50,824 bases of DNA. Origin: Candidatus Heimdallarchaeota archaeon. Lineage in GTDB: Archaea; Asgardarchaeota; Heimdallarchaeia; JABLTI01. The DNA is taken from contig DXJV01000078.1 of the NCBI GenBank assembly GCA_019056785.1, forward strand, positions 1-50,824, given 5' to 3'. Of this stretch, positions 5,171 to 35,714 are shown piece after piece. The notes beneath the pieces are model-generated. The model was not told the origin of the DNA and searched no databases. It worked only from the letters and a program-made list of their open reading frames with translations. Positions within the stretch are counted from its first letter, which is position 1, and the number at the start of each line of letters is the position of its first letter. The position numbers were made by a program, and so were the translations under genes.

Positions 5171-5321
5171 GCTGAGGTGGCCTAGAAACCGAAACCTGTC
5201 TGGCTTTGGTTTGGGCATCCTGGTAGGGCGGTAGCCTGGAAATTTGGTTTTCCTTAATTTCCACTACCGGTCAGCTACTGTGCGTCAGCACGCGCGAGTT
5301 CAAATCTCGCCCTCAGCACCA
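5171..5321 (+). tRNA. tRNA-Ser(GGA) with two introns (5186-5218 at 15/16; 5242-5272 at 37/38) and encoded CCA
   Basis: Acceptor GCTGAGG/CCTCAGC, anticodon stem GTAGC/GCTAC with CT-GGA-A|A loop, long variable arm GTGC-GTCA-GCAC, T-arm GCGAG-TTCAAAT-CTCGC. Removing both inserts gives an 87-nt class II tRNA. Confidence 0.92.
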
Positions 5322-32055: not shown

Positions 32056-32622
32056 ATGCCATGGAGCATTACATTCAAAGTGATCGAGAAATATGATCTT
32101 GCACGAAAAGAATTGGGGTTACGAGTAGCCATTGCTGGTTTTAATGCTTATAAAGGCCTGAAAATCCGCTTCTCGGCTTTCCCAAGTATTGAGAAAACTT
32201 TCACAAAAACTGGTGCTTTAACGTTTGAAGCGATTGGAACACCCGGTACAAACATTCTTGAAGTAATTGAGCCGAAAAGCGGGAGAATTATCCAGGCTAT
32301 TGGTTCTGTCAATAGCAATCTCTTCACGGAAGGGCCAACCAATCAAGAAATTAAGATTACACATTACGGGCAAAAAGCAACCATCACTCTAACCAAAGTG
32401 CCAAAATTAAAGGAAGAATTTATCCGGTTGGATGCTTCTCCAAAAATTTCCCTCTTCTTTGGTGTCAACCCTGAAACGAAGCAACCAATTTACACTAAAA
32501 AAGTTGATAAGAAAGGTAACTTCCAAGAAACGATCACTGGCCCTCTGAGCGAAAAACACGAAGTACGTGTTTTAACAGGCCAAATGGTGAAAATTGTATC
32601 CATTAAACCGCCGGAACCATAA
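32056..32622 (+). CDS. Hypothetical beta-rich protein
   Basis: ORF 31999-32622; ATG 32056 (GAGG upstream) preferred as start. Confidence 0.65.
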   Translation: MPWSITFKVIEKYDLARKELGLRVAIAGFNAYKGLKIRFSAFPSIEKTFTKTGALTFEAIGTPGTNILEVIEPKSGRIIQAIGSVNSNLFTEGPTNQEIKITHYGQKATITLTKVPKLKEEFIRLDASPKISLFFGVNPETKQPIYTKKVDKKGNFQETITGPLSEKHEVRVLTGQMVKIVSIKPPEP

Positions 32623-32782
32623 AGCTCCTTTCTTCTCTTTCTTTCTCTTTGTGTTGGTTAGAATATGGTCAGTTTTTTGCAGCTCTTTTTTATATTTTAG
32701 CTAATATTAAAAGGGAAGAGAGTCAATTTGAATTACAGAAAGATATTTTTCTTACATACTAAATAGATGGTGGTAAACAAGT

Positions 32783-34248
32783 TTGGATGAAGATCTTTAC
32801 CAGAAAATTTTCGAGTTAGCTGCCAAAGAACAGGTCAGCTATGTAGACGTCCGAGATGAAGACTCCCTCTATACTGTTATAGAAGTTGTAGACGGGAAAG
32901 TTCAGAGGTCTTCGGTCGGGTCTGAGGCAGGTATTGGTATTCGCCTTCTTAAAGACGGTGCGTTTGGCTTTGCCTACGGCTCAAAAAAGAGTTTCAAAGA
33001 GGTTCTAGCAATGGCGTTAGAAAGCCAAATTGTCGCTAAAAAGATGGCCAAAAGTGATATCACTTTGGCTGAAGTGAAACCAATCAAGGACAAGGTAGTT
33101 ATCTCGCAAAAAAAACCCGCACAAGATGTTTCCTTCGAAGAGAAGATGAAACTTTTACTCGAGGTTGACAAGGAACTGAAAGACAAGGATAAGAAAATAA
33201 AATCCGCCCGGAGTTATTACTTCGACGTTTTGCGCCGACAAACTCTTGCAACTTCAGAAGGAACGCTGATTTATGAAGAACGACCATATACTTATCTCTA
33301 TGTCATACCAACGGCCAAAAAAGGCACTGATACCAATCAAGGTTTGGGCCGTGCCGGACATATCGGTGGTTTCGAACTCTTTGATGAAGTTGATGTGAAA
33401 GCACGAGCAATTGAAACACGCGAAAGAACCATCAAAGGTTTAGAGGCTAAGCGAGTGAAACCCGGAAAATATCCTGTCGTGATGGATGGCACCTTGAATT
33501 TTCTGTTTGCCCATGAAGCATTTCAAGAGTGGGTTAATTGAACTTCTCATCTTGTTTTGCATGGAGAGCAGCAGGACATTCAAGCGAAGGCGATTTCCTC
33601 CGAACGGCGGGCGTCTTCAAAGGTAAATTGGGAAAACGTCTTAGTCAACCCTTTGTAAACCTAATCGATGATGGTACGCTCGAGTATGTCCCCGGATATC
33701 CCACAAGGACATTTGGTTTCATGCGCTATGATGATGAGGGCACTCCTGTCCAGCGAACTGAAATCATTAAAAACGGTGTTCTTAGGACTTATCTCACCGA
33801 TCGTGCAACAGCTGCACATTTCAATTTAGCACCAACAGGCAATTGCCGTGCTGAGTTCTACTCCAGTTATCCCATAGTTAGGATGCGAAATACTTTCCTT
33901 AAGGCTACTAGTGGCTCTGCACTTTCTGAGGAGGAAATTCTCTCTTTGGTGAAAGAGGGCTTGCTTCTCAAATATGGTGGTGGTGGACAAGTTGACCCTA
34001 TCCGAGGTACCTTTAATTTTGGTGTTGGAGAAGTATATGAAATTCACAATGGAGAAATAGGCGAACTGCGAAAAGCTACTACAATCTCCGGCAATACTTT
34101 AGATACTCTGAGCAAGATTATTGGCCTTTCTAATAAAATGGCCGACCCCTCAGCGAATGTCGGTTTCTGTGGTAAAGATGGTCAGCGTGCTCCCACTGGC
34201 ACAGGTGCAGGATGGATGGCTGTCAAATTAATGACAATTGGAGGTTAA
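32783..34248 (+). CDS. tldD: TldD metalloprotease, join(32783..33516,33567..34248), 471 aa after removal of a 50-nt intron
   Basis: The N-half has YVDVR and GIGIRLL..GAFGFA; the C-half has YDDEG, GNCRA, PIVRMRNT, CGKDGQ..P.G.G. The HEAAGH motif forms only across the junction. Confidence 0.9.
33517..33566 (+). other. Candidate BHB (tRNA-endonuclease type) intron in tldD mRNA
   Basis: TGC-CCAT-GA|A-GCA...TGC-ATGG-AG|A-GCA: 4-bp helix CCAT/ATGG, two 3-nt bulges, flanking helices on both sides. Confidence 0.85.
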
Positions 34249-34253
34249 AAAGA

Positions 34254-35714
34254 ATGGCAAAAGAACTTACATTAGATGAGGCACTCAAATTTTCATTGAA
34301 GTTTGCAGAAAAGAAAGGTGCAACAGAGTTTGAAGCCTATGCCGTCTCCTCTCGGGAGATTTCAATTGGGCTTGAAAAGAGCATCCCACAAACAACTACA
34401 GGCATTTCAGAGGGGCTCTCAATTCGGGTGGTGGCGAACAAAAATATTGGCTTTGCTTTTACGAAAACATTGACAAAGGCCCGCCTTGAATCAACGATCA
34501 AAGCCGCGCTTCAAAATGCACGGTCCAAAGGACCTGACCCTGATTACCATTCTCTCCCTCAACCCGCCTTACCGCCACCGGTTAAATTCACATTTGACGA
34601 AGAGCTACTTACAGTTACTGCTGATTCACTTGCAGATGGCTTGGAACATGTCATTAAAAAAATCAATGCGGTAAAATCACTCAAATTTTTGCAAGGACAA
34701 TTGAGTTTAACAGTAATCAAAGACCATTTAATCAATTCAAATGGTGTTGATATTAGCTCACAAGGTGGTGGCATTGGGGGCTTTACAGCGGCAATTACGA
34801 CAAAAGGCCTAATCCCCAATTATTCGTATGGCATTCATGGCTCTCCAACTCTGAAAGGATTTAATTATGACATTTTAGCCCAAGAAACGATAAAACAGAC
34901 ACTTCGCGCAGCAGGACCAAAGACCATGAATTTCAATAAGGAAGTCCCAATCATCCTCGAACCGGAAGCCTCTTTTGGCCTTCTTGGAGGGTTGTTTTCT
35001 TTGTTGTTCACTCAACTCCAAGGAAACAATGTCGATCGTGGTGCAACTCCTTATTCAGATCAAGTTGGGAACCAGATTGCCGTGGAAAATTTCACTTTGA
35101 TTGATAATGGTTTGAACACTGAAAAAATCAATCGGAGCCTTTTTGATGCTGAAGGAACGCCTCAACAAAAGACAGTTCTTATTGAGAAAGGCGTGCTACA
35201 AACATACCTCTTGGACAGTTATTACGGCCATAAACTTGGTCTCGAGTCAAATGGTAAAAGCACACGAATGGGCATTTTTGGCTTTGGAGGTGACCCAGTG
35301 AAAACCTATCCTTCAATAAGTCAAACCGTCCCAGAAGTTGCACCGGGTGATTCATCAAAAGAAGAGATGTTCGCCGAGACGAAAGAAGGGTTCCTTCTCC
35401 GCTCACTTATGGGTATGCATATGTCCGACTCGAGTTCCGGACGCTTCTCAGTGACGGGCTTTGGTTGGTACATTAAAAACGGAGAAATCCAATATCCCGT
35501 CCAGGGTATAAATATTTCTGGTTTTCTCCCTGAGTTGCTCAAAAACATTGACCTTATTTCCAAAGAGCGGGAAGCCTTACTTTTGGCAGACAGTCCATAT
35601 ATTCGTTTCGCCTTAGTTCCTGTGACTGCAAAGAAGTTTGACTTTAAGACCCGTTTTGGTCTAACTCTCCTCAAAATCATCTCTGTTCTTACTGGAAAAC
35701 ATCCCATGATATGA
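34254..35714 (+). CDS. pmbA: PmbA/TldE family protein
   Basis: GLSIRV..NIGFA, FDAEG.P....LIEKGVL..YL, SGRFS; lacks HExxH as expected; directly after tldD. Confidence 0.9.
   Translation: MAKELTLDEALKFSLKFAEKKGATEFEAYAVSSREISIGLEKSIPQTTTGISEGLSIRVVANKNIGFAFTKTLTKARLESTIKAALQNARSKGPDPDYHSLPQPALPPPVKFTFDEELLTVTADSLADGLEHVIKKINAVKSLKFLQGQLSLTVIKDHLINSNGVDISSQGGGIGGFTAAITTKGLIPNYSYGIHGSPTLKGFNYDILAQETIKQTLRAAGPKTMNFNKEVPIILEPEASFGLLGGLFSLLFTQLQGNNVDRGATPYSDQVGNQIAVENFTLIDNGLNTEKINRSLFDAEGTPQQKTVLIEKGVLQTYLLDSYYGHKLGLESNGKSTRMGIFGFGGDPVKTYPSISQTVPEVAPGDSSKEEMFAETKEGFLLRSLMGMHMSDSSSGRFSVTGFGWYIKNGEIQYPVQGINISGFLPELLKNIDLISKEREALLLADSPYIRFALVPVTAKKFDFKTRFGLTLLKIISVLTGKHPMI

Follow-up and report, generated by a model that had tools for sequence, protein, structure and literature searches.

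The stretch of DNA that was analysed, referred to below as the window, is an entire contig of 50,824 nt (50.8 kb) from a metagenome-assembled genome (MAG) of 2.87 Mb, which comprises 102 contigs and has an estimated completeness of 82.5%. As judged from sequence comparisons, the organism is an Asgard archaeon, since its relatives are labelled Candidatus Heimdallarchaeota or Asgard group. Two open reading frames (ORFs) on the plus strand of the window, of 252 aa (32783..33541) and 236 aa (33538..34248), share the domains of a TldD metallopeptidase between them: a Pfam search places PmbA/TldD domains 1 and 2 on the former and domain 3 on the latter. The first-pass annotation of this DNA had proposed that tldD is interrupted here by a bulge-helix-bulge (BHB) intron, removed from the mRNA by EndA and RtcB, and that such a gene would be mis-annotated; public gene calls do indeed give 252-aa and 236-aa products. 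The features of the locus, with the intron limits as predicted from the motif, are the following.

32783..33516, plus strand: tldD exon 1, 244 codons and the GA of the catalytic Glu codon, with Pfam domains PmbA_TldD_1st and PmbA_TldD_2nd
33517..33566, plus strand: predicted intron of 50 nt within the Glu codon of HExxxH, without a counterpart in orthologues outside its clade
33567..34248, plus strand: tldD exon 2, which completes the Glu codon with its last base and continues through 226 codons to the stop codon, with Pfam domain PmbA_TldD_3rd (E = 1.6e-48)
33501..33576, plus strand: complete hBHBh' splicing motif, as in the minimum-free-energy fold
33524..33554, plus strand: intron hairpin with a stem (33524-28/33550-54), a distal stem (33530-33/33546-49) and a variable apical loop (33534-45)
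34254..35714, plus strand: intact gene of a PmbA/TldE-type partner, 486 aa as called, with Pfam PmbA_TldD domains 1st and 3rd (public gene calls)

The TTG start of tldD at position 32783 is putative and was taken from the public gene calls. Exon 1 is collinear with 26 orthologues. Exon 2 bears the second His of HExxxH together with the region of the conserved Cys ligand, and can be aligned to the Escherichia coli TldD structures 5NJ5 and 5NJC from AVGH through the C-terminus, including the GxCGK[DE]GQ Cys-ligand region. The partner gene, which starts 6 nt past the tldD stop codon, lacks the HExxxH motif. The attributes of the TldD family, namely PmbA_TldD domains 1-3, HExxxH, a C-terminal Cys ligand and a PmbA/TldE partner, are all present at the locus, and the complete HExxxH of tldD exists solely after splicing. 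Four more TldD-like paralogues, 27-33% identical, are encoded in the genome (contigs C2, 9043-11654; C84, 137256-139933; C49, 48390-49793; and C25, 42543-43892). HExxxH is clear in three of them, the motif of the C25 paralogue being gapped in the alignment, and two of the four are followed by PmbA-like partners, which points to an expanded TldD/PmbA repertoire. Because further HExxxH-bearing paralogues are present, this copy of tldD need not be essential.

The region in which the two ORFs meet has the geometry of a strict hBHBh' motif, i.e., two 3-nt bulges on opposite strands (GAA 33515-17 and AGA 33565-67) at 4-bp spacing, with an outer and an inner helix. The outer helix pairs TGC 33508-10 with GCA 33568-70 and is extended by the fold to 9 pairs (33501-07 and 33509-10 with 33568-76), the central helix pairs CCAT 33511-14 with ATGG 33561-64, and the inner helix pairs GCA 33518-20 with TGC 33558-60; further inside, CAAGA 33524-28 pairs with TCTTG 33550-54 in the intron stem. 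All 10 pairs of the 3+4+3 core are Watson-Crick pairs. The motif is the minimum-free-energy fold, its ten core pairs having probabilities of 0.58-0.96 across contexts of 83-863 nt, and it is the best fold in 3/3 haplotypes. Every element proposed in the first-pass annotation was recovered at its proposed position. The fold energy as such is unremarkable when compared with shuffled sequences (z = -1.09) and is not discriminating.

The frame of exon 1 runs into an in-frame TGA at 33539-41, inside the intron. Cutting after the second base of each bulge, which is equivalent to the deletion of 33517-33566, yields a single 471-aa frame with FAHEAAGHS at the junction, as had been claimed for a 50-nt excision that restores AHEAAGH; the same rule gives the correct product for the 49-nt intron of a sister lineage described below. 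The predicted sequence of the joined exons is ...GCCCATGA/AGCAGCAGG..., where the slash marks the junction, and the predicted peptide across it is ...NFLFAHEAAGHSSEGDFLR. The spliced product aligns gap-free to 26 orthologues of full length: gaps are absent from the 40 residues on either side of the junction, and the NFLFAHEA[AV]GHS block is invariant. Over the N-terminal half, identity to these orthologues amounts to 60-75%, and most of them have exactly 471 aa. In about 25 insert-less orthologous loci that were read at the junction (congeners, remoter relatives and metagenome contigs), the DNA reads CATGAA/GCAGC without interruption, and no insert was seen in any such orthologue outside the intron-bearing clade.

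An interrupted gene may simply be a broken one. The insert could have inactivated this copy of tldD, with the paralogues compensating for the loss and the resemblance to a splicing motif being coincidental or non-functional. The confinement of the intron to one small clade, the other HExxxH-bearing TldD paralogues of the genome and the lack of RNA data are all compatible with this possibility. The decisive evidence in this respect comes from the sister lineage L069 (JGI 3300033149), represented by a 137-kb contig with the same gene neighbourhood as the window. Between L069 and the window, 22% of exon bases differ, with pS of 0.75, i.e., saturated, and a non-synonymous proportion of 0.056, and the spliced proteins are 91% identical. 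L069 carries an intron at the identical site (49 nt, approximately locus positions 2391-2439), which differs from that of the window at 10/50 positions (20%), while synonymous sites differ at 75%; the intron thus evolves far more slowly than synonymous sites, which speaks against a dead insert. Its changes are confined to the apical loop (including a 1-nt deletion), the distal stem, a spacer and a single base of one bulge. The CAAGA/TCTTG stem is kept, as are the outer, central and inner helices, and the motif is again the best fold. The length of 49 nt alters the frame relation of the unspliced sequence, and splicing as defined by the structure would still lead to 471 aa.

Comparisons of the window with other intron-bearing alleles give dN/dS values of 0.03-0.08 (about 0.03 for L069, 0.037 for L070, 0.077 for L074 and 0.055 for L036), and the exons behave alike (about 0.02-0.07 in exon 1 and 0.03-0.08 in exon 2). 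Relaxed selection in both halves, named in the first-pass annotation as a sign of a pseudogene, is not indicated. Every spliced allele is an open 471-codon frame with no additional stops or frameshifts, and faster evolution of the host protein was not seen, its root-to-tip distance being mid-range. The within-species comparison, in which 16/19 differences between two haplotypes are synonymous, was set aside in favour of L069 because these differences may predate a recombination event (see below). Since L069 keeps the motif at saturated synonymous divergence and both exons evolve at low dN/dS, these comparisons argue that the intron-bearing tldD is not a pseudogene.

Results of the comparison with L069 also bear on the RNA motif itself. 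Third codon positions differ at 52% gene-wide, and the longest stretch of the gene without any third-position change, which comprises 10 codons (241-250, LFAHEAAGHS), coincides exactly with the arms that the exons contribute to the motif. In relatives without the intron, the arm codons vary freely (GCT/GCC/GCA, GCA/GCT/GCG and GGC/GGA/GGT). The core pairs are invariant in three distinct haplotypes of two lineages, and the changes observed include the loop indel, one U-A to C-G compensatory double change and one G-U to A-U compatible change in the distal stem, and one G-U to G-C change in the outer helix, which is synonymous. On this pattern, the motif appears to be kept by selection that acts on the RNA besides the protein. 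The support from covariation is limited: it rests on one pair of the distal stem because the motif core never varies, its statistics are weak because there are only three distinct intron sequences, and a shuffle control of the pair count was not significant (171/500). Thus, of what an alignment of related tldD genes had been expected to provide, the conservation of the motif was obtained in L069, but covariation amounted to a single compensatory pair and the presence of the intron proved to be limited to one clade.

The resemblance to a splicing motif is also hard to ascribe to coincidence. In this genome, the all-Watson-Crick 3+4+3 motif occurs at 2,445 of about 1.07e9 site-length combinations, i.e., with a frequency of about 2.3e-6 each. 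The tldD motif sits on a register that is fixed independently by homology, and a 4-nt repeat permits five equivalent registers. We put the probability that a strict motif falls into exactly this register by chance at about 1e-5, and a coincidence is very unlikely. Set against intact frames, low dN/dS in lineages that share the insert, synonymous sites frozen over the motif arms and this chance value, the inactivation of tldD by the insert is already close to refuted, and we consider it improbable.

The genome encodes the host enzymes that splicing of this type would involve, namely two PF01974 genes and one RtcB gene (locus L003). The former two, and an intron-bearing tRNA gene of the window, are listed below.

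Locus L001, 1474-2064, minus strand: EndA alpha-like gene, with candidates for the Tyr, His and Lys residues present
Locus L002, 1177-1800, plus strand: EndA beta-like gene, with the His missing
Window, 5171-5321, plus strand: tRNA-Ser(GGA), which ARAGORN detects only with two introns removed

An (alpha-beta)2 EndA with a broad-specificity loop has been reported for Asgard archaea (PMC5829648), and the EndA pair of this genome matches the published type. The alpha-like gene adjoins a radical-SAM-like gene; the beta-like one encodes an N-terminal extension rich in Lys and Glu and overlaps an ORF of 266 aa at the start of the latter. The introns of tRNA-Ser(GGA) have 33 nt (5186-5218, in the D-loop) and 31 nt (5242-5272, at position 37/38). 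In the whole 82%-complete genome, ARAGORN finds just 16 tRNA genes, 9 of them with introns, which implies that many tRNA genes are hidden by non-canonical or multiple introns.

We interpret the 50-nt insert as a genuine BHB (tRNA-type) intron in the coding sequence of a Heimdallarchaeota tldD, and estimate the probability of this interpretation at about 0.86. In the transcript, base pairing between the two exon flanks, and between these and the 3' end of the intron, would produce a helix-bulge-helix-bulge-helix structure, in which the (alpha-beta)2 EndA would cut after the second base of each 3-nt bulge. Joining of the exons by RtcB would restore the GAA (Glu) codon of HEAAGH and the 471-aa frame, and the intron would be released as a 50-nt molecule, probably circular. 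Unspliced mRNA is predicted to give only a 252-aa fragment without the catalytic domain. Because the sister lineage keeps the insert while both halves of the gene are under strong selection, the tldD mRNA very probably has to be spliced, although there is no RNA-level or protein-level evidence of it. The proposal of the first-pass annotation that an intron is removed from this mRNA by EndA and RtcB is thereby supported by the recurrence of the insert in separate assemblies (see below), L069, dN/dS, the frozen arms and the enzyme genes. Cleavage, ligation and their efficiency remain inferences, as distinct from motif geometry, exact frame restoration, conservation, purifying selection and the presence of the enzyme genes, which are observed. 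Transcription-coupled translation could compete with the folding of the motif, and for this reason we leave the efficiency of splicing uncertain.

Selection on both exons would also be explained if ribosomes skipped the 50 nt without any RNA splicing. Translational bypassing of this kind is exemplified by gene 60 of phage T4 and by the mitochondrial 'byps' elements; we know of no description of it in archaea. The take-off codon would be GCA 33518-20 and the landing codon GCA 33568-70, and the match of these codons, both conserved in L069, the 50-nt hop and the hairpin in the gap fit such a scheme. However, the two GCA codons match simply because the motif has two-fold symmetry. The take-off codon is followed by TTT and not by a stop, the first stop lying 6 codons downstream, so that the arrangement characteristic of T4 gene 60 is not met. 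Moreover, bypassing has no need for two 3-nt bulges at 4-bp spacing, which are nevertheless strictly conserved, and the organism demonstrably relies on EndA for its tRNAs. We find this explanation weaker than that of an inactivated gene.

Still less probable, in our opinion, is that the 252-aa and 236-aa ORFs are translated separately to form a two-piece TldD. The stop codon of the first ORF and the TTG start of the second overlap at 33538-41 (TTGA), and public gene callers annotate two genes; yet the break between the two products would lie inside the HExxxH helix, and the tails encoded by the intron differ by lineage (FQEWVN, FQEWEN and FQERCN). In L069, a TGA located 5 codons ahead of the junction closes the frame of exon 2, and the first codon at which translation could start (ATG, GTG or TTG) comes only 20 codons past the junction. 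The first 31 codons of exon 2 nonetheless show 14 synonymous and only 2 non-synonymous codon differences between the window and L069, so that the codons ahead of that start, among them the one for the second His, are under purifying selection. It is this conservation of the beginning of exon 2 in L069, behind a stop and without a start, that excludes a gene split into two polypeptides.

No fewer than 14 independent assemblies, obtained from ENA, NCBI, Logan and JGI, carry the insert; they were made with different assemblers from different samples and show allelic variation. Those deposited in NCBI include GCA_029856855.1, GCA_029932625.1, GCA_021498085.1 and GCA_054387015.1, the third of which is Heimdallarchaeota AC18 (PMC10833476). 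The carrier contigs encode exact or close alleles of the 252-aa and 236-aa products, and the insert is ungapped in all of them. Although the source is a fragmented and incomplete MAG, an assembly or sequencing artefact, against which the first-pass annotation had advised a check, is ruled out and the insert is real, because it recurs with allelic variation in independent samples, assemblers and archives. A group I or group II intron and an intein were also considered and rejected, as the insert has only 50 nt whereas a ribozyme core takes up hundreds, its length is not divisible by 3, and it gives no Rfam match at E up to 1.

With the BHB intron as the preferred reading, the published system that comes nearest is the intron in the cbf5 pre-mRNA of Crenarchaeota (Watanabe 2002; Yokobori 2009, PMC2738675). 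In both cases, a short BHB intron lies in a coding sequence, cutting by the tRNA-splicing endonuclease and religation are predicted, and the distribution of the intron is patchy, with gain and loss among relatives in the case of cbf5. The hosts differ, cbf5 encoding an RNA pseudouridine synthase of Desulfurococcales and Sulfolobales, and the present gene a TldD metallopeptidase of Heimdallarchaeota (Asgard) with the insertion in its catalytic Glu codon. For cbf5 there is experimental evidence of splicing, whereas for tldD it is inferred from comparative data. In the case of Haloferax volcanii HVO_1309, a BHB intron in the 5' UTR of the mRNA was demonstrated both in vitro and in vivo; as late as 2020, the authors of that work considered cbf5 the only other such mRNA example (PMC7714728). 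HVO_1309 likewise extends the substrates of the archaeal splicing endonuclease beyond tRNA and rRNA to an mRNA, but its intron resides in an untranslated leader and breaks no frame, while that of tldD interrupts a coding sequence. The non-canonical BHB introns in tRNAs and rRNAs of Asgard and TACK archaea (PMC5829648; bioRxiv 10.64898/2026.10.13.758758) have the same motif and the same predicted enzymes. Asgard tRNA introns have been described as orphans (bioRxiv 10.64898/2026.10.13.758758), and the tldD intron is similarly without sequence relatives in its genome or family. It differs from them in that its host is an mRNA and the arms of its motif are made of codons, which results in a constraint on synonymous sites. 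No published BHB intron in an Asgard protein gene was found in the literature that could be searched, where cbf5 is the only archaeal coding sequence with documented tRNA-type splicing. The tldD case adds a new host gene, a new lineage, a split catalytic Glu codon and unusually complete comparative support.

If splicing takes place as proposed, interrupted protein genes whose RNA must be cut and rejoined can persist in the archaea most closely related to eukaryotes, and the need to form a splicing motif can constrain codons. Such genes are currently reported by gene callers as two fragments. With its length of about 80 nt, the motif could also serve as a small substrate on which to examine the specificity of Asgard EndA, and in which the exon arms, the loop variation and the natural 49/50-nt variant can be compared.

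Outside the prokaryotes, HAC1 and XBP1 are examples of non-spliceosomal mRNA splicing, in which the endonuclease Ire1 cuts, a tRNA ligase (RtcB in animals) joins, and the reaction serves as a regulated stress switch. The similarity to tldD consists in the non-spliceosomal removal of a short frame-changing intron from an mRNA and in the use of a tRNA ligase. The cut in tldD is attributed to the tRNA-splicing endonuclease and not to Ire1, no regulation has been shown, and no homology of the introns is implied; the regulatory gate suggested in the first-pass annotation is thus without support in the present data. A more far-reaching reading is that splicing is a switch that makes the production of TldD depend on tRNA-splicing activity or on the motif being folded ahead of the ribosomes, and that introns of this kind form a recurrent, unannotated layer of Asgard gene expression. 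If true, this would be a prokaryotic counterpart of HAC1/XBP1-type unconventional splicing. We regard this reading as rather doubtful.

The first-pass annotation had suggested that further such introns would be found genome-wide, which our scan did not bear out. The strict 3+4+3 search of the genome gave 92,683 hits, and those joining ORFs numbered 250 as compared with 244-254 in shifted-boundary controls, i.e., there was no excess. Strict motifs with a length of up to 110 and no more than 2 G-U pairs numbered 16,608, and 14 of them are present in the local best fold. Only the tldD motif among these joins two frames of at least 80 codons, with 0 such cases in the shifted-boundary controls; the remaining 13 are antisense to genes or would break open frames. 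No second ORF-joining mRNA intron was thus found in this genome by a strict scan, the sensitivity of which is low, as it misses the genome's own relaxed tRNA introns. Introns that are in frame would leave no broken gene to notice. Two in-frame strict motifs that form the best fold lie within long open frames (contig C3, 26797-26850, plus strand, 54 nt; contig C85, 10153-10245, plus strand, 93 nt) and are probably due to chance.

The intron-bearing tldD alleles fall into a single clade (support 1.0) that branches from within the intron-less orthologues. Since the insert is absent from all other congeners, the simplest history is a single gain on the stem of this small clade, followed by retention, which we ascribe to selection on the RNA motif as well as on the protein. 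No other species with a split allele was identified, the only carriers belonging to the window's own cluster and to that of L069, and among full-length proteins on record no intron-less allele or spliced-form protein is more than 75% identical. A donor or a second copy was not detected in the genome, where a short-word BLAST search with the 50 nt gave chance matches of 11-15 nt only, and a search with 62 nt in 12 genomes of the family returned nothing below E = 0.03. C/D-box motifs are absent from the intron, as far as can be judged by eye.

Two minor observations concern individual alleles. The intron-less orthologue of one congener (L007, G001:C406) has a single in-frame TAA at a position where the others have Glu (FGVG*VYEIH), attributable either to a nonsense mutation or to an error in the sequencing of that MAG. 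The strains represented by the window and by L036 (GCA_029932625.1) show about 2% differences over 6 kb, but only 3 differences in the region of about 1.65 kb around the intron (window positions ~32250-33900), and this tract of low divergence suggests that the intron-bearing segment underwent recent recombination.
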